Positions 13,986-31,228 of a stretch of DNA of 64,000 nt are shown here, piece by piece; the first letter of the stretch is position 1; every line of letters begins with the position of its first letter. Under the pieces are notes generated by a model. It saw only the letters and a list, made by a program, of their open reading frames with translations. It made no database searches and was not told the DNA's origin. This DNA comes from Candidatus Woesearchaeota archaeon (GTDB lineage Archaea > Nanobdellota > Nanobdellia > Pacearchaeales > GW2011-AR1). The DNA lies in NCBI GenBank assembly GCA_964545065.1, contig CAZJEO010000002.1:68879-132878 (forward strand), given 5' to 3'. Both the position numbers and the translations under genes were made by a program.

Positions 13986-14954
13986 ATGCCTACAAGAAAA
14001 AGTCCAAGAAAAGGAAGTTTGCAGTATTGGCCACGGAAAAGGGTCAATAAATTTTTGCCTAGTGTGAACTGGGACGCGATTTCTGAAGGAAAAACAATCA
14101 AGGGATTTATAGCTTACAAAGCTGGAATGGTTTCTGCTTATGTTAAAGATAATACAGAAGATTCAATGACTAAAGGGAAGCACATTGCAATTCCTGCCAC
14201 AATAATTGAATGTCCACCAATGAAGATTTTTTCTGTTAGATTTTACAAAAATGGTTTGGCTGTGAAAGATGTTTTGGCTGAAAATTTAGATAAGGAACTT
14301 AAAAGAAAAGTTAAGCTTCCAAAAGTAAAGAGGAAATTTGAAGAGTTTGTGGCACCCAAGGGTGTACCCTCTAAAGAGGGCAAAGATTATGATAATATTC
14401 ATGTGATTTGTTATTCTGTTGTTAAGAATACTGGGATAAAGAAAACCCCTGATTTGATTGAGCTGGATATTTCTGGAAGCAATGAAGAAAAATTGAATTT
14501 CATTAAAGAAAATATTACTAAAGAAATTTCTGTTTTGGATGTTTTTGAGAAAGACCAACTTGTTGATGCTCGTGGATTGACTACTGGAAGAGGTTTACAA
14601 GGACCTGTTAAAAGATTTGGTATAACTTTGAAAGCAAGCAAATCTGAAAAAGGTAGAAGGCGACCAGGATCTCTTGGTCCGTGGCATCCAGCTCGTGTAA
14701 CATTTAGGGCTCCGCAAGCAGGACAATTAGGAATGTTCACAAGAATTATTTACAATAATAAAATAATTGAAATGGGAAAAAGCGCAGACAAGGAATTAAA
14801 GAACATCAAGAACTTTGGAGATATTAAAACAGATTATGTTATTGTTCAAGGTTCTATTATGGGCCCTTCAAAAAGACAGCTACTTCTTACATCACCATTA
14901 CGAGGAACTAAAAAACAACTCAAGAAAAATTATGAGTTGGTGGATTTAAGATGA
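13986..14954 (+). CDS. rpl3: 50S ribosomal protein L3 (uL3)
   Basis: MPTRKSPRKGSLQYWPRKR start typical of archaeal uL3. First gene of the conserved L3-L4-L23-L2 order. Short repeat insertion at 14352-14385. Confidence 0.95.
   Translation: MPTRKSPRKGSLQYWPRKRVNKFLPSVNWDAISEGKTIKGFIAYKAGMVSAYVKDNTEDSMTKGKHIAIPATIIECPPMKIFSVRFYKNGLAVKDVLAENLDKELKRKVKLPKVKRKFEEFVAPKGVPSKEGKDYDNIHVICYSVVKNTGIKKTPDLIELDISGSNEEKLNFIKENITKEISVLDVFEKDQLVDARGLTTGRGLQGPVKRFGITLKASKSEKGRRRPGSLGPWHPARVTFRAPQAGQLGMFTRIIYNNKIIEMGKSADKELKNIKNFGDIKTDYVIVQGSIMGPSKRQLLLTSPLRGTKKQLKKNYELVDLR
14352..14385 (+). repeat. In-frame palindromic mini-element, short form (inside rpl3; peptide APKGVPSKEGK)
   Basis: GCACCCAAGGGTGTACCCTCTAAAGAGGGCAAAG contains two hairpins, CACCC-AA-GGGTG and CCCTC-TAAA-GAGGG. 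Nearly identical to 19703-19736. Confidence 0.85.
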
Positions 14955-17362: not shown

Positions 17363-18070
17363 ATGACAGAAAAAGATTATAATCCAGAACAGAAAAATAA
17401 AAAAGTGATGAACACGCAAAAGGTAGTTGGAAAAGTAAATGAATCTCCTGTAAAAAAGGAAACTGCAAAAATTGCGCCAGAGGAAAAGAAAATAGCTTCG
17501 CCTGGAGACGAAGGAGATAAAGAAGTAATTAATAACAAAGACAGCGGCGCTATTAAGACACCCAAGGGTGTACACCAAGGAGGTGCGAGTACCTCTTCGA
17601 GGCCTCGAGAAACTTCTGGAGAAGTTTCTACTAGGGGCAAAAAACAACCTGTAACTTCTAAAGTAAAAAAGAGTGAAGCAATTGTTAATGGAGTTGGTTT
17701 GCCTCTTTCAACAAAAACATCTGTTGCTATTTGTAAATTTATTCGTGGAAAAAGCATTCCAAAAGCAATTGCAAATTTAGAGCAAGTTATTGCTAAGAAA
17801 AAAGCTGTTCCAATGAAAGGCGAAATTCCTCATAGAAAAGGAAAAATTATGTCGGGAAGATTCCCAAAAAATGCTGCAGAATATTTTATTAAATTATTAA
17901 AGAATTTGCAAGCAAATGCAAACGCTAATGGTTTGGACGAGCCAGTTGTTGCTGAAGCTATGGCAAATATTGCGTCTCAACCTTATGGAAGATTTGGAAG
18001 AGTTCGAAGAAAGAGAACTCATGTTTTACTTAAGGCTAAAGACAAGAAAATGAAGGGAGGAAACAAATAA
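17363..18070 (+). CDS. rpl22: 50S ribosomal protein L22 (uL22) with a ~95-aa N-terminal extension
   Basis: ATG 1 nt after the rps19 stop. The conserved uL22 core starts near GLPLSTKTSVAICKFIRGK. The extension contains the long repeat element. Confidence 0.85.
   Translation: MTEKDYNPEQKNKKVMNTQKVVGKVNESPVKKETAKIAPEEKKIASPGDEGDKEVINNKDSGAIKTPKGVHQGGASTSSRPRETSGEVSTRGKKQPVTSKVKKSEAIVNGVGLPLSTKTSVAICKFIRGKSIPKAIANLEQVIAKKKAVPMKGEIPHRKGKIMSGRFPKNAAEYFIKLLKNLQANANANGLDEPVVAEAMANIASQPYGRFGRVRRKRTHVLLKAKDKKMKGGNK
17558..17641 (+). repeat. In-frame palindromic mini-element, long form (rpl22 N-terminal extension; TPKGVHQGGASTSSRPRETSGEVSTRGK)
   Basis: ACACCCAAGGGTGTACACCAAGGAGGTGCGAGTACCTCTTCGAGGCCTCGAGAAACTTCTGGAGAAGTTTCTACTAGGGGCAAA. 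Inner stem AGAAACTTCT/AGAAGTTTCT. Confidence 0.9.
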
Positions 18071-18834
18071 TGGAAGAAAGAAATACAGTTAAATTTAGAA
18101 AAGATGAATTTGCTATCAAGGAATATATTAAAAAGCAACTTGGAAAAGGTAAGGTTAGCAAAGTTAGGATTGAATACACTCCTATTGGGGAGAAGATAAT
18201 TGTTTCAACAAGCAAGCCTGGTTTGGTTATTGGGAGAAAAGGAGAGAGAATTGAAGAGTTGACAATTATTTTGAAAAAGAAGTTCAAGCTTGAGAATCCG
18301 ATAGTTGAGATTGATGAGATTTTAAACCCAGAGTTTGATGCTCAGATTATTGCTGATGAGATTGCGCTTGGGTTAGAGAGGAGTGGGCCGTTGAAGTTTA
18401 AAGTTATTGCTTATCGGACATTGCAGAAAATAATGGGTGCAGGAGCTCTTGGAGCTGAGATAGTTATTGGGGGAAAATTGCCAGGAGCAAGGGCAAAATC
18501 CTGGAGGTTTGCTCAAGGATATTTAAAGAAAACAGGAGATAGTGCAAAGATTGTTGACAGAGCGAAATCAACTGCGCAAACAAAACCAGGAACTGTTGGA
18601 ATTAAAGTTAGTATACTTTCACCAGATGCTGTCTTTAAGGATAAAATAAAGATTGATGATGAAGTTATTGCAAAATTAAAGAATGCTGCAGAGGAAGTTG
18701 CGCCCAAGGGTGTACCCCGAGATATTTCTAAAGAAATATCTACCGAGGGCAAAGAGCAACAGAAAAAGAAAATAGTAAAAACTAAACTGGTATCTAAAGG
18801 TGTACCTTCTAAGGAAGGCAAGGCGGCGAAATAA
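18070..18834 (+). CDS. rps3: 30S ribosomal protein S3 (uS3)
   Basis: KH domain (LVIGRKGERIEEL) and conserved position. The C-terminal tail holds two repeat copies. Confidence 0.95.
   Translation: MEERNTVKFRKDEFAIKEYIKKQLGKGKVSKVRIEYTPIGEKIIVSTSKPGLVIGRKGERIEELTIILKKKFKLENPIVEIDEILNPEFDAQIIADEIALGLERSGPLKFKVIAYRTLQKIMGAGALGAEIVIGGKLPGARAKSWRFAQGYLKKTGDSAKIVDRAKSTAQTKPGTVGIKVSILSPDAVFKDKIKIDDEVIAKLKNAAEEVAPKGVPRDISKEISTEGKEQQKKKIVKTKLVSKGVPSKEGKAAK
18700..18754 (+). repeat. In-frame palindromic mini-element, medium form (rps3 tail; APKGVPRDISKEISTEGK)
   Basis: GCGCCCAAGGGTGTACCCCGAGATATTTCTAAAGAAATATCTACCGAGGGCAAAG. Inner stem GATATTTCT/AGAAATATC. Confidence 0.85.
18793..18823 (+). repeat. 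In-frame palindromic mini-element, short form, diverged (rps3 tail; SKGVPSKEGK)
   Basis: TCTAAAGGTGTACCTTCTAAGGAAGGCAAGG. The stem is CCTTC/GAAGG instead of CCCTC/GAGGG, a paired compensatory change. Confidence 0.65.
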
Positions 18835-19363: not shown

Positions 19364-19756
19364 ATGGAAAAAATAGAAGAAAAGAAACAGATAGAGAAAG
19401 AAACAGCTAAGACAGCTGGAGCTGGATGTGAAGATAAGAATTGTCATGTTCATGGTAGCTTGAAAGTTCGTGGAAAAATCTTTGAAGGAGAAGTTATCAA
19501 GAAATTCCCTAAGAGAGTTGTTATTCAATTTGAAAGAATGATTTATGTTAGAAAATATGAAAGATACAAAAAAAGTAAGACAAAGATTCACGCAAGACTT
19601 CAAGATTGTATGAAGGATGATGTTCAAGTTGGAGATATGATTAGGATTCAAGAATGTCGACCTTTGAGTAAGATTATACATTTTATAGTGCTAGGGAAAA
19701 TCACACCCAAAGGTGTACCCTCTAAAGAGGGCAAAGCCAAGGAGGAAAAGAAATGA
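19364..19756 (+). CDS. rps17: 30S ribosomal protein S17 (uS17)
   Basis: CEDKNCHVHG and RIQECRPLSK motifs. First ATG in the ORF. The tail carries the short repeat. Confidence 0.9.
   Translation: MEKIEEKKQIEKETAKTAGAGCEDKNCHVHGSLKVRGKIFEGEVIKKFPKRVVIQFERMIYVRKYERYKKSKTKIHARLQDCMKDDVQVGDMIRIQECRPLSKIIHFIVLGKITPKGVPSKEGKAKEEKK
19703..19736 (+). repeat. In-frame palindromic mini-element, short form (rps17 tail; TPKGVPSKEGK)
   Basis: ACACCCAAAGGTGTACCCTCTAAAGAGGGCAAAG, near-identical to the rpl3 copy. Confidence 0.85.
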
Positions 19757-22103: not shown

Positions 22104-22769
22104 ATGACAGATAAAGAAGAAGAAACTAAAATGGCAGAAGAAACAGCACCCAAGGGTGTACACCAAGGAGGCGCGAGTACCTCTTCGCCAAGTAGGTCTG
22201 AAAGAAGGCCCCTAGACATTTCTCAAGAAATGTCTACTGAGGGCAAAGAAAAACAAATGGCATCCAAGGAGAATCCAATGCGAGAAATAAAAATCGAGAA
22301 GATTGTTCTTAGCATAGGTGGGATTGGAGAAGACTTGGAAAAGGGTGTTAAGCTTTTGAAACTTATTACTGGAAGAGTTCCTGCTAAAAAAAGATCAAAC
22401 AAAAGAATTCCAACTTTGAATGTTCGACCGAAACTTGAAATTGGAGCAATGGTTACAATCAGGCAAAACATAAAAGAGTTTTTGGAAAAAATGCTTGTTG
22501 CTATTGATAATACTTTGAAGAGAAAACAAATAAGTGAAAATAATTTTTCATTTGGAATCCATGAATATATTGAGATTCCAGGAGTAGAATATCAGAGAGA
22601 ACTTGGAATCATGGGATTTGATGTTACTGTTGTTTTCAAAAGAGCAGGACGAAGAGTTAAGTTGAGAAAAGTGAAGCGAGGAAAAGTTTCAAAGCGACAA
22701 GTTATAAGCAAAGAAGAAATAATTAAATTCATGGAAGAAAATTTTAATACGGAGTTTGTGGGGAAATGA
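22104..22769 (+). CDS. rpl5: 50S ribosomal protein L5 (uL5); alternative start at 22257
   Basis: The conserved uL5 core begins at MASKENPMREIKIEKIVLSIG (ATG 22257). The in-frame upstream 51 codons from ATG 22104 consist mostly of the long repeat element. Confidence 0.85.
   Translation: MTDKEEETKMAEETAPKGVHQGGASTSSPSRSERRPLDISQEMSTEGKEKQMASKENPMREIKIEKIVLSIGGIGEDLEKGVKLLKLITGRVPAKKRSNKRIPTLNVRPKLEIGAMVTIRQNIKEFLEKMLVAIDNTLKRKQISENNFSFGIHEYIEIPGVEYQRELGIMGFDVTVVFKRAGRRVKLRKVKRGKVSKRQVISKEEIIKFMEENFNTEFVGK
22146..22248 (+). repeat. In-frame palindromic mini-element, long form with an extra 18-nt module (5' of the rpl5 core)
   Basis: GCACCCAAGGGTGTACACCAAGGAGGCGCGAGTACCTCTTCG[CCAAGTAGGTCTGAAAGA]AGGCCCCTAGACATTTCTCAAGAAATGTCTACTGAGGGCAAAG. 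Inner stem TAGACATTTCT/AGAAATGTCTA. Confidence 0.9.
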
Positions 22770-24691: not shown

Positions 24692-25227
24692 TGGCTCCAA
24701 CATTTTTAAGACGAACAAGTTTTAGGTATTCAAAACTTGGAAAGGGTAGAAAGAAAAAACAAGTTTGGAGAAGACCGACTGGAAGAGATAATAAAATGCG
24801 GGAAAGAAGGAAAGGATATCCTGCTGTGGTTAGTGTTGGATACAAGACAAATAAAAAAGAACACAAAAATATTGTGAATGTTGAAAATTTAAAGGATTTG
24901 GCAAAAGTACAAAAAGGAGATGTTGTTGTTTTTGGAAATATTGGAAAAAAGAAAAAAATAGAACTTGCAAAAAAGGCAAAAGAAATGAAAATTGAAATCA
25001 GTAATTTAAATATTGAAAAGTTTTTAAAAAAGATTAAAGAGAAGGAAGAGAAGAAAGTTGAAGTTGAGACAAAAGGAAAAAAGATAGTTAAGAAAACTGG
25101 AGTGAAGAAGAAAGAAGAAACTAAATCAGATGGAGTCGCACCCAAGGGTGTACACCAAGAAGGTGCGAGTACCTCTTCGAGGCCCCGAAACATTTCCAAG
25201 GAAATGTCTACTGGGGGCAAAAAATGA
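24691..25227 (+). CDS. rpl32e: 50S ribosomal protein L32e (eL32) with a C-terminal extension
   Basis: FLRRTSFRYSKLG..WRRPTGRDNKMR is the eL32 core. The tail ends with the long repeat element. Confidence 0.9.
   Translation: MAPTFLRRTSFRYSKLGKGRKKKQVWRRPTGRDNKMRERRKGYPAVVSVGYKTNKKEHKNIVNVENLKDLAKVQKGDVVVFGNIGKKKKIELAKKAKEMKIEISNLNIEKFLKKIKEKEEKKVEVETKGKKIVKKTGVKKKEETKSDGVAPKGVHQEGASTSSRPRNISKEMSTGGKK
25138..25221 (+). repeat. In-frame palindromic mini-element, long form (rpl32e C-terminus, abutting the rpl19e start)
   Basis: GCACCCAAGGGTGTACACCAAGAAGGTGCGAGTACCTCTTCGAGGCCCCGAAACATTTCCAAGGAAATGTCTACTGGGGGCAAA. Inner stem ACATTTCC/GGAAATGT. Confidence 0.9.
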
Positions 25228-26137: not shown

Positions 26138-27005
26138 AATTACAGAAAAAGCTAAACAAATAGATGCTGGAAATAGAAGAGCCTTTGGTGGTTCTCCAGA
26201 AGATAGAAAGAAAAGATTTCAGCAAAGAATTGAAGAAGAAGAAAGAGAAAGATTAGCTAGTTGGAAACCAAAAACAAAACTTGGAAGAGAAGTAAGAGAA
26301 GGGAAGATAAAAAATATTGATGAAATTCTTGATTCAGGAAGAAAAATTATGGAATCTGAAATTGTTGATTTGGTTGCAAATGTTAAATCTGATTTAATTT
26401 TCGTTGGACAATCAAAAGGAAAGTTCGGTGGTGGAAAGAGAAGAGTTTGGAGACAAACGCAGAGAAAAACTCGTGAAGGAAATGTTCCTACTTTTTCAAC
26501 AATGGCTGTTATAGGAGATGGGAATGGGCATATTGGAATTGGCGATGGGAAGTCTAAGGAAACTTTGCCTGCAAGAGATAAAGCAACAAAGAAAGCTAAG
26601 TTGAATATTTTTAGAATTACAAGAGCTTGTGCTGGTTTTGATTGTGCTTGTTCTGAATTACATTCTGTTCCATTCAAAGTTACTGGAAAATCTGGAAGTG
26701 TTAGAGTTACATTAATCCCTGCACCACAAGGAACTGGATTGGTTGTGGCAAATGAATTAAAGAAAATTTTGAAACTTGCTGGAATCAAAGATGTTTATAG
26801 TAGAACTTCGGGTAAACAGCGAACATCTTTTAACTTGATTAAGGCTTGTATTGAAGCTTTAAAGAAAACAAATGGTGATAAGCAAGTTGTTGCAAAACAA
26901 GTGATTAAAAAAGTTGAAAAGAAAGAAGAAGTTGTAGAAAAGAAACCTGTGAAAACTGACGAAAAGAAAACAGAATCAAAAGAAGTTAAGGAGGTTGGGA
27001 AATGA
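26127..27005 (+). CDS. rps5: 30S ribosomal protein S5 (uS5) with a K/E-rich C-terminal extension
   Basis: uS5 core (GDGNGHIGIGDGKSKE) and first ATG in the ORF. Confidence 0.9.
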   Translation: MESKITEKAKQIDAGNRRAFGGSPEDRKKRFQQRIEEEERERLASWKPKTKLGREVREGKIKNIDEILDSGRKIMESEIVDLVANVKSDLIFVGQSKGKFGGGKRRVWRQTQRKTREGNVPTFSTMAVIGDGNGHIGIGDGKSKETLPARDKATKKAKLNIFRITRACAGFDCACSELHSVPFKVTGKSGSVRVTLIPAPQGTGLVVANELKKILKLAGIKDVYSRTSGKQRTSFNLIKACIEALKKTNGDKQVVAKQVIKKVEKKEEVVEKKPVKTDEKKTESKEVKEVGK

Positions 27006-27229
27006 ATTTAGTTGAAACTGCAGTTGTAGCTTTGGAAAAGGTTGTTAATGTGTATTGTGATGATAAGTCCCGAAAAGGGATGGATGAAGTTAGAGATTAC
27101 TATGCTACTTATGAGAAAGTTCTTTCAAGTGAAGGAGAGGGTTTGCCAGAAGAAACTATTCTGGAACTTGAAGGGCGAGCTAAAACTGCTTATAAAACAT
27201 TTTGGGAGAATAAAACACCATGCTGGTAG
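27002..27229 (+). CDS. Small lineage-specific ORF (75 aa) intercalated between rps5 and rpl30
   Basis: ATGA overlap with rps5 and a 10-nt overlap with rpl30. No homology recognised. Confidence 0.5.
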   Translation: MNLVETAVVALEKVVNVYCDDKSRKGMDEVRDYYATYEKVLSSEGEGLPEETILELEGRAKTAYKTFWENKTPCW

Positions 27230-27567
27230 TAATTAGAATACGAGGACAAGTTGGATTGGATGAACACATAGTAAATACTTTGTACAGATTAAGACTTAGA
27301 AAAAAATACACTTGTATTGTTTTGGAAAATCCTGGTAAGGAACAACTTGGAATGATAGAGAAGGTAAAGAATTTTGTGGCTTATGGTGAAATAGATGAAG
27401 CTACTTACAAAAAACTTGTTGAAGCACGAGCAGGGAAAATAAAGAATTTCTTTAGATTGCATCCTCCGAGAAAAGGAATTGATAGTAAGAAACATTTTGG
27501 AGTTGCTAAAGGTGTTTTAGGAAATCATGGTAAGGAAATAAATAAATTAGTGGAGAGAATGTTATGA
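27220..27567 (+). CDS. rpl30: 50S ribosomal protein L30 (uL30)
   Basis: MLVVIRIRGQVG start and conserved position. Confidence 0.9.
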   Translation: MLVVIRIRGQVGLDEHIVNTLYRLRLRKKYTCIVLENPGKEQLGMIEKVKNFVAYGEIDEATYKKLVEARAGKIKNFFRLHPPRKGIDSKKHFGVAKGVLGNHGKEINKLVERML

Positions 27568-28118
27568 TAACTAAAAAACGAACAAAAGCATCTCGACAAC
27601 ATGGAAGAAACATGGGAACACACGGAGGCGGAGCTAGGAAAAAGCGAAAAGGTTCAGGGCATAGAGGAGGAAAAGGAATGTCTGGAAGTGGAAAGCGAGC
27701 AGACCAGAAGAAAACTCTTGTGATAAAACTTTATGGTCATGAGTATTTCGGTAAGCAGGGAATCACAAGCAGGGGAACAAAAAGAGATACAAGACAAAGA
27801 ATTAATCTTCAACAAATTGAAAATAATTTAGAGAAATATGGACACCAAGGGCGTACCCCGAAAGATTTTGATAAAAAATCTTTACAAGGGGCAAAGCAAG
27901 GAAAAGATGGTTGGGAAATTGAATTAGGAAAATATAAAATTCTTGGAAATGGCGAAGTTAAGAATAAATTAATTATTACAGCTATGGAAGCTTCTGCATC
28001 TGCGGTTGAGAAAGTGAAGAAAGCTGGCGGGGAGATAATTGTTAATGCTCACCGCTCGGTGTACCCCAAATTGCAGAATAAAGGGGCAAAAAAAGAGGAA
28101 AACATTGAAGAAAAATGA
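27564..28118 (+). CDS. rpl15: 50S ribosomal protein L15 (uL15)
   Basis: G/R/K-rich N-terminus (GGGARKKRKGSGHRGGKG) and conserved position. Holds two repeat copies. Confidence 0.9.
   Translation: MITKKRTKASRQHGRNMGTHGGGARKKRKGSGHRGGKGMSGSGKRADQKKTLVIKLYGHEYFGKQGITSRGTKRDTRQRINLQQIENNLEKYGHQGRTPKDFDKKSLQGAKQGKDGWEIELGKYKILGNGEVKNKLIITAMEASASAVEKVKKAGGEIIVNAHRSVYPKLQNKGAKKEENIEEK
27842..27896 (+). repeat. Palindromic mini-element, medium form, read in a different frame (inside rpl15; HQGRTPKDFDKKSLQGAK)
   Basis: ACACCAAGGGCGTACCCCGAAAGATTTTGATAAAAAATCTTTACAAGGGGCAAAG. Inner stem AAAGATTTT/AAAATCTTT; outer stem CCCC/GGGG. Confidence 0.75.
28050..28090 (+). repeat. Palindromic mini-element, short/diverged form, third reading frame at the 5' arm (rpl15 C-terminal region)
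   Basis: CACCGCTCGGTGTACCCCAAATTGCAGAATAAAGGGGCAAA retains the GGTGTACCCC and GGGGCAAA arms. Confidence 0.55.
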
Positions 28119-30727: not shown

Positions 30728-31228
30728 ATGGAAAACGAACAACAAGAAATGATGTTTAAGATGCAAATGTTTGATCAACAGATTAAGCAGTTGCAACAAC
30801 AATTACAAGCAATTGATCAAGGGATTTCAGAAATGACTGCTTTGAACGAAGGACTTAGTGAACTAGTTGGGAAAGAAGGGAAAGAAATTTACGCTCCAAT
30901 TGGTAGGGGCATATTTGCAAAAGCTAAACTTATTTCAGAAGATTTGAATGTTGATGTTGGTGGAGGAAACATGGTTAAGAAAACTATTCCTGAAACTAAA
31001 AAGATAATTGAAGACCAACTTAAGAAACTTGATGAAGTTAAGAAAGAGCTTGAAACTGGTATGGAAAAAATGGGCGAAGAATTTAAGGTCCTGATTGAAG
31101 ATGCTCAGGCTAAAGAAGCTGGGAATATTGGAAAGAAAGAGGAAGGGAAAGAAAAGAAACCAACAAAGACATCAAACATTTCCCAAGAAATGTCTACTAA
31201 AGGCAAGAAAATTGATGAGTTGGTTTAA
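30728..31228 (+). CDS. pfdA: Prefoldin alpha subunit
   Basis: Coiled coil, beta-hairpin region (IYAPIGRGIFAKAKL..VDVGGGNMV), coiled coil. The tail carries a partial repeat. Confidence 0.7.
   Translation: MENEQQEMMFKMQMFDQQIKQLQQQLQAIDQGISEMTALNEGLSELVGKEGKEIYAPIGRGIFAKAKLISEDLNVDVGGGNMVKKTIPETKKIIEDQLKKLDEVKKELETGMEKMGEEFKVLIEDAQAKEAGNIGKKEEGKEKKPTKTSNISQEMSTKGKKIDELV
31174..31207 (+). repeat. Palindromic mini-element, 3' half only (prefoldin tail; NISQEMSTKGK)
   Basis: AAACATTTCCCAAGAAATGTCTACTAAAGGCAAG. Stem ACATTTC/GAAATGT followed by CTACTA-AGGCAAG, as in the long copies. Confidence 0.6.

Follow-up and report, generated by a model that had tools for sequence, protein, structure and literature searches.

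Rickettsia palindromic elements (RPEs; Ogata et al. 2000, 2002, as summarised in PMC10969869 and PMC3733652) are found in frame in unrelated genes, with each family encoding one conserved peptide (PMC10969869), and in R. felis 85 of 728 RPEs lie in open reading frames (PMC1166351). REPs inside genes have also been described (Di Nocera et al. 2013, PMC3733652). In yeast mitochondria, GC clusters occur in the ribosomal protein gene VAR1, and bypass elements evolved from GC clusters (PMC4464245), while double-hairpin elements are known from fungi (PMC2800124). In the literature that we searched, we found no description of such a repeat family in DPANN archaea.

The stretch of DNA analyzed here, referred to as the window, comprises 64,000 nucleotides (contig C2, positions 68879-132878) of a 782 kb genome, G000, which consists of 27 contigs, has 33% GC and is 85% complete. 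By Pfam, the window includes the archaeal ribosomal-protein supercluster. We catalogued 31 copies of a repeat across the 0.78 Mb of G000, with a few more added by a looser scan, and these form a family of short (30-111 bases), modular, GC-rich hairpin repeats in an AT-rich, DPANN-type archaeon.

Like RPEs, these units are palindromic hairpin repeats that lie in frame in many unrelated housekeeping genes of a small, AT-rich, reduced genome, contribute a tolerated extra peptide and have no known transposase. RPEs, however, are bacterial, measure approximately 100-150 bases, encode one peptide per family and are common between genes too, as the R. felis figures illustrate, whereas the archaeal units are modular or nested, nearly all intragenic and read in three sense frames, even within one subfamily. 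On this comparison, multiple-frame use, small modular size and an archaeal host distinguish the family from RPEs. The likeness to REPs lies in a short GC-rich imperfect palindrome with a conserved tetranucleotide by the stem, in the archaeal case GTAC, located 5' of CCCC...GGGG; some REPs are also intragenic and translated, and neither REPs nor the archaeal units have target duplications. REP tags are GTAG or CGTC rather than GTAC, REPs are mostly located between genes and often form inverted pairs, whereas the archaeal copies have one orientation, and GTAG REPs are accompanied by a RAYT tyrosine transposase gene, which we did not find in G000.

The GC clusters and double-hairpin elements, which are mobile, resemble the archaeal units as GC-rich hairpins of 30-80 bases with small-indel subclasses in a very AT-rich, small genome, and the GC clusters in VAR1 are in frame and not removed from transcripts. 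They differ in being organellar, mostly located between genes and limited to one affected protein gene, and the accessible part of the source reports no multiple-frame use; the archaeal copies, with 53% GC in a 33% GC genome, are polymorphic among congeners. Classical MITEs are also small, non-autonomous, structured and multi-copy, with filled and empty sites among relatives, but they have terminal inverted repeats and target-site duplications, neither of which was detected at the uL15 and Kae1 junctions when filled and empty sites were compared.

RESULTS

Anatomy and distribution of the repeat

Each unit consists of a 5' arm, one or more inner hairpin modules and a 3' arm, RGGGCAAAG. The 5' arm, RCACC-CAAG-GGTG-TAC (with CAAG as the loop), folds as a small hairpin that occurs in three covarying forms, CACCC/GGGTG, CCCCC/GGGGG (in NifU) and CACCG/CGGTG. 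The minimal form measures 30 bases, and added modules give forms of 39, 51, 72, 81, 84, 99 and 111 bases. Among ten aligned single-hairpin copies, which include all three reading frames, mean column identity is 81%. The inner AT-rich stem varies among copies with pairing maintained (columns 23/40 as AU, GC, CG or UA; 21/42 as AU or GC; 26/37 as UA, CG or AU). Predicted folds of six copies with 25-base flanks are stacked hairpins, with z from -1.5 to -4.1. Measured from CACC to GCA, 26 of the 29 copies that could be measured have a length divisible by three (binomial p=4.5e-10). Subfamilies that are one base short in the 5' arm (CACCACGG versus CACCCAAGG) have gained one base in the hairpin, so that 51 bases are kept.

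Several variants were noted outside this general scheme. In G001, the orthologue of the host gene at G000 C8:14387 carries the same copy (locus L092), in which half of the inner hairpin has been lost and another module gained (GCGCACAAGAACCTGCAAGCAGGTAC), a change that, from the sequences, looks like nested turnover inside a unit. A partial unit with the inner hairpin and 3' arm lies between two co-directional genes at G000 C1:8790-8880, where a 14-base direct repeat on either side, ATTGGAAAATGAAA, is a duplicate of the stop/start overlap. By eye, a K-turn reading of CCC-CGA-GA...GA-GGG fits a single copy and is not conserved across copies. Long composite elements, in which the two arms would lie far from each other on either side of a gene, were also sought in G000, and none was convincing.

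All 31 catalogued copies lie within long open reading frames in sense orientation. Their hosts, mostly confirmed by Pfam, are unrelated, intact housekeeping genes, and the 14 kb ribosomal operon holds 10 of the 31 (p=1e-10). Four other genomes together yielded 21 copies, of which 20 lie within open reading frames in the sense direction. A 12-mer of the 5' arm was found in 16 of the 301 genomes of the order. These all belong to one family, and a few scattered genera carry the 12-mer in multiple copies. Within the window, there are two matches to the pattern GTACCCC..GGGGCAAA, compared to 0 in 100 shuffles, and the 5' core GKGTACCCC, allowing at most one mismatch, has 18 occurrences compared to 4 expected. 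An Rfam gathering scan of the window returned only tRNA-Ser, and the repeat copies match no Rfam family.

Two copies in the uL15 gene

The gene for ribosomal protein uL15 (27564-28118, forward strand) was identified by its Pfam match to Ribosomal_L27A, PDB uL15 matches that align over residues 5-160, and an orthologue alignment. It hosts two copies on the same strand. Copy 1 (27843-27893) is a 51-base single-hairpin element, CACCAAGGGCGTACCCCGAAAGATTTTGATAAAAAATCTTTACAAGGGGCA, read in frame 2 as HQGRTPKDFDKKSLQGA between the codons for ..LEKYG and KQGKDGW.., with a predicted fold of -12.7 kcal/mol (z=-2.8). Copy 2 (28050-28088) is a 39-base element of the CACCGCTCGG subfamily, CACCGCTCGGTGTACCCCAAATTGCAGAATAAAGGGGCA, read in frame 1 as HRSVYPKLQNKGA in a C-terminal tail past the conserved end of uL15. 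That tail is private to G000 in the orthologue alignment and lies beyond residue 160, where the PDB uL15 chains end.

It had been left open in the preliminary description that the uL15 segments might not be homologous to the element at the nucleotide level. A profile of nine single-hairpin copies, with copy 1 left out, matched copy 1 over its full length (nhmmer E=1.5e-14), and four CACCGCTCGG-type copies, taken from other contigs and stripped of their inner modules by hand, gave a profile that matched copy 2 (E=1.1e-12). Since profiles built from other copies match both segments, the objection of non-homology fails.

When 30 uL15 orthologues are aligned, copy 1 stands out as a block of 17 codons between LEKYG and K. 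The site is filled in G000, G001 and G009:C71 and empty in G002, G003, G004 and 24 other relatives aligned, so that of the genus's four other genomes three lack the copy, as do 24 of 25 further relatives. Copy 1 is thus a clean 51-base insertion. The uL15 of G009:C71, a 3.7 kb contig, is 76% identical to that of G000, compared to 63% for four concatenated proteins (uL15 included), and this contig probably comes from a closer relative of G000 and G001 and was mis-binned; homoplasy, considered as an explanation for a copy in G009 and not in three congeners, was set aside on these grounds. The uL15 gene of G003 has no copy 1 and carries another mini-insert, CTCCAAGGAGGAGTACCCCATAAAGGGGCAAAA, read as LQGGVPHKGAK after the codons for ..ILSEGEV, at a different site in the same gene.

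Other copies in the window

The remaining copies in the window are also on the forward strand. An 84-base copy in the Taw1 gene (1420-1503; nhmmer E=4.6e-10; host with Pfam Wyosine_form and Radical_SAM) has its 5' arm in frame 1 (TPQAYT), whereas its 3' arm follows the phase of frame-0 copies (STRGK), so the frame switch between its arms that was originally described is real. Further copies are in frame 0 in ribosomal protein genes identified by Pfam. The uL3 copy (14353-14382) has the minimal 30-base form, folds as two short hairpins and is read as PKGVPSKEG; it is present in G000 and G001 and absent in G004. An 81-base copy in uL22 (17559-17639; PKGVHQGGASTSSRPRETSGEVSTRG) is found at its site only in G000. 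The uS3 tail holds two copies, one of 51 bases (18701-18751; PKGVPRDISKEISTEG; nhmmer E=7.6e-15) that is missing from G001, G003 and G004, and a degenerate minimal form (18791-18823; KGVPSKEGK) that is missing from relatives. At the uS17 tail (19704-19733; 30 bases), G003 has a longer variant and G001 and G004 have none. The 99-base copy in an N-terminal extension of uL5 (22147-22245), missing from G001, G003 and G004, is the only copy with all five other frames closed. An 81-base copy in the eL32 tail (25139-25219), found in G000 only, ends where the next gene starts.

A partial copy in the tail of a prefoldin-like gene (31173-31208) matches model positions 22-54 (nhmmer E=0.0014) and consists of no more than the inner hairpin and 3' arm. 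We also observed a 75-codon open reading frame of no recognized family at 27002-27229, between the S5 and L30 genes and overlapping both.

Reading frames of the repeat in its hosts

The same element is read in different frames in different hosts, as first described from the window sequence. Seventeen of the 31 copies are in frame 0, reading GGT GTA (PKGV...GK); nine are in frame 1, reading G GTG TAC (RVYP, SVYP, QAYP); and five are in frame 2, reading GG CGT ACC or GG TGT ACC (GRTP, GCTP). In the four other genomes, 13, 3 and 4 copies are in frames 0, 1 and 2, respectively. The CACCGCTCGG subfamily alone uses all three frames, and five combinations of 5'-arm and 3'-arm phase were seen. The frame-1 and frame-2 hosts are genuine genes, encoding HisRS, NifU, the CCA-adding enzyme, Kae1, TFE-alpha, a GNAT domain and Trm5/Taw2.

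Pairs of copies read in the same frame are 85-90% identical in DNA and 75-81% in peptide, whereas cross-frame pairs are 76-90% identical in DNA and 22-42% in peptide. The C23 copy in Trm5 (frame 1) and the C26 copy (frame 0), for example, share 90% DNA and 42% peptide identity over 99 bases, and the copy on contig C7 (frame 1) and the uL22 copy (frame 0) share 90% and 22% over 81 bases. The second copy in the CCA-adding enzyme (frame 2) is 92% identical in DNA to the copy at C8:14114 (frame 1). Together with stem covariation and an almost complete lack of synonymous change, these comparisons strongly support the earlier proposal, apparent at the level of sequence, that the conserved unit is the DNA or RNA and not the peptide.

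Stop codons and composition of the encoded peptides

The copies contain 30 stops in sense and 46 in antisense, compared to approximately 71 and 73 in dinucleotide shuffles, and this roughly two-fold sense depletion is overstated by the test because the copies share ancestry. All 31 copies have an open host frame (14 expected), while 37 of 62 non-host sense frames (27.7 expected) and 62 of 93 antisense frames (42 expected) are open. Overall, 68 of 93 sense frames are open, with a typical copy open in two of three, and uL15 copies 1 and 2 each have a stop in one sense frame. The statement that all three frames stay open thus holds for the family as a whole but not for each copy. Likewise, of the suggestion that the element was built or filtered to be stop-free in several frames, filtering is reasonable given the depletion of stops, while building is not borne out by copies that are mostly open in two of three frames. 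That the host frame is always open reflects survivorship, with no sign of design.

Mean hydropathy is -1.18 for host-frame peptides, -0.80 for other open sense frames and +0.04 for open antisense frames. The hydrophilicity of the host-frame translations indicates a probable filter at the peptide level.

Orientation, strand and candidate mobilizing enzymes

Sense orientation extends from the 31 copies of G000 to all 51 when the intragenic copies of the other genomes are included, and the same holds for three untranslated or edge copies relative to the neighboring gene. Stop codons do not explain this sense-only orientation because 62 of 93 antisense frames are open. The G000 copies (contigs C1, C2, C3, C5, C7, C8 and C12) are all on the contig-dominant strand, which carries about two thirds of coding bases and has a positive background GC skew; this copy-bearing strand is probably the leading one. 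The trend is weaker in other genomes, where the locally dominant strand holds 18 of 20 copies compared to approximately 13 expected, and this is confounded with gene expression, and we keep the strand trend as a hint.

No Y1_Tnp (PF01797) domain, TnpB domain or reverse transcriptase (RVT_1) was found in the 85% complete G000 assembly. IS200-like Y1 transposase (TnpA) genes are present in two genomes with many element copies, G225 (locus L096, C20:163-603) and G236 (locus L097, contig C2), the latter gene having an internal TGA. We considered these TnpA proteins as mobilizing partners and rejected them, as their flanking hairpins are unrelated to the element.

Comparison of orthologous sites

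Occupancy varies among close relatives. A 63-base block in Kae1 is found in G000 only, the NifU and uL3 copies are common to the sister genomes G000 and G001 only, and the two uS3 copies and those in eL32 and uL5 are private to G000. The site in the PolD large subunit (G000 C2:189283-189317; loci L085-L089) holds differing variants in G000, G001, G003 and G009 and is empty in G002 and G004, which points to either a hot spot for insertion or turnover of the unit in place. The host site on C8 is filled in G000, G001, G003 and G225 and empty in G002 and G004.

Where orthologous copies exist, they have diverged little. Across five orthologous loci, codons for the same amino acid are identical in 62 cases and different in 3 inside the element, compared to 965 and 572 in the flanks (p=2.5e-9). 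The 53-base copy in the C8 host is identical in G000 and G003 and matches at 52 of 53 bases in another genus, while its flanks are 67% identical. This low divergence may reflect either nucleotide-level selection on inserted copies or a conserved master sequence that re-inserts at preferred sites, perhaps with precise loss.

DISCUSSION

On the simplest account, the repeat is likely a mobile unit of 3n bases that lands in any phase, an archaeal counterpart of RPEs, intragenic REPs and yeast mitochondrial GC clusters. Units would be gained, and perhaps lost, as blocks of 3n bases, presumably through mobility, and would sit only in the direction of the host gene. A 3n unit landing in any codon phase would leave the downstream host frame intact, while its own frame would be set by that phase. 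The survivors would be copies whose frame lacks stops and gives a hydrophilic, probably disordered loop or tail, presumably filtered by selection. Landing in any phase combined with a filter for stops and hydrophilicity would make one nucleotide sequence appear as three unrelated peptides, and one-base differences between the arms of subfamilies would be compensated elsewhere, which would give rise to the apparent frame switch in Taw1.

Several observations count against a mobile passenger. The orthologous copies show far more conservation than would be expected of a selfish insert in decay, no transposase was found in the 85% complete G000, the uL15 and Kae1 junctions have no target duplications or terminal inverted repeats, and the sense-only bias does not come from stops. 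In addition, enrichment in the ribosomal operon could mean function as well as tolerance. A stronger proposal, which we consider rather unlikely, is that inserted copies are under nucleotide-level selection or undergo repeated, precise excision and re-insertion at preferred sites through a strand-specific mechanism acting on single-stranded DNA. If nucleotide selection is true, the repeat would be a structured nucleic-acid element with a polarity, sense to transcription and located on what is presumed to be the leading strand, and essential genes would have to encode around it in any of the three frames. It would then impose overlapping nucleic-acid and protein information on its hosts, and a decaying selfish insert would be ruled out.

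A first alternative is that the units are functional nucleic-acid signals that coding sequences accommodate, either as structured mRNA involved in processing, stability, operon coupling or protein binding, or as single-stranded DNA hairpins that are polar in replication. The frozen synonymous sites, the near-identity of the 53-base copy across genera, covarying stems, the sense orientation of every copy (the three untranslated or edge copies included), enrichment in the ribosomal-protein operon and the placement of all G000 copies, and 18 of 20 elsewhere, on the G-rich dominant strand or its local equivalent all fit such a role. However, most copies are private to one genome among close relatives (those in uS3, eL32, uL5 and Kae1 to G000), which suggests no conserved role per site, and none matches an Rfam family. 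Expression level and the tolerance of disordered tails both confound the strand and operon biases, and the low divergence could result from repeated insertion of a conserved master at preferred sites, as the PolD variants in four genomes and the C8-host site illustrate. On balance, we consider a signal function unlikely.

Removal or skipping of the units at the RNA level, as bulge-helix-bulge introns or ribosome-bypass elements whose "translations" are never made, would account for frame-indifferent conservation at the nucleotide level and for strict sense orientation, and there is a precedent in the bypass elements that evolved from GC clusters (PMC4464245). However, an open host frame in every copy (31 compared to 14 expected) and a 3n length in 26 of 29 would not be needed if units were removed, and the hydrophilicity of host-frame peptides, the highest among open frames, suggests selection on a translated product. 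The archaeal bulge-helix-bulge motif (two 3-base bulges and a 4-bp helix) is absent from the junctions in the six folds with 25-base flanks, and the exon flanks are not complementary. A translational bypass element (byps), which would be a frame-breaking or stop-bearing insert, was likewise rejected on the open host frames and 3n lengths. We regard RNA-level removal as highly improbable.

Finally, selection for a peptide motif, in the form of a lysine- and glycine-rich low-complexity tail or linker, can in practice be dismissed despite the similar PKGV...GK peptides of 17 of 31 copies and the many copies in charged tails of ribosomal proteins, as DNA that is 90-92% identical yields unrelated peptides in other hosts, which already contradicts such a motif, and as hairpin stems covary and synonymous sites are frozen.

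The reading that we favor, a mobile 3n unit that lands in any phase, would have direct consequences for its hosts. A nucleic-acid element is adding length to essential archaeal proteins, among them at least eight ribosomal proteins, two tRNA synthetases and the DNA polymerase D large subunit, and its sequence is preserved whatever peptide results. If the units are translated, peptides spanning three frame-specific sequences are expected, HQGRTPKDFDKKSLQGAK in frame 2, HRSVYPK... in frame 1 and APKGVPR... in frame 0. With its frozen synonymous sites and strict polarity, the family makes the question of passenger or signal directly testable. It also offers an archaeal system for the spread of REP- or RPE-like repeats without a recognizable transposase, and can mislead alignments and phylogenies of DPANN proteins through apparent "conserved motifs" and variation in length. 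The repeat also serves as a natural experiment on the peptide insertions that proteins tolerate.
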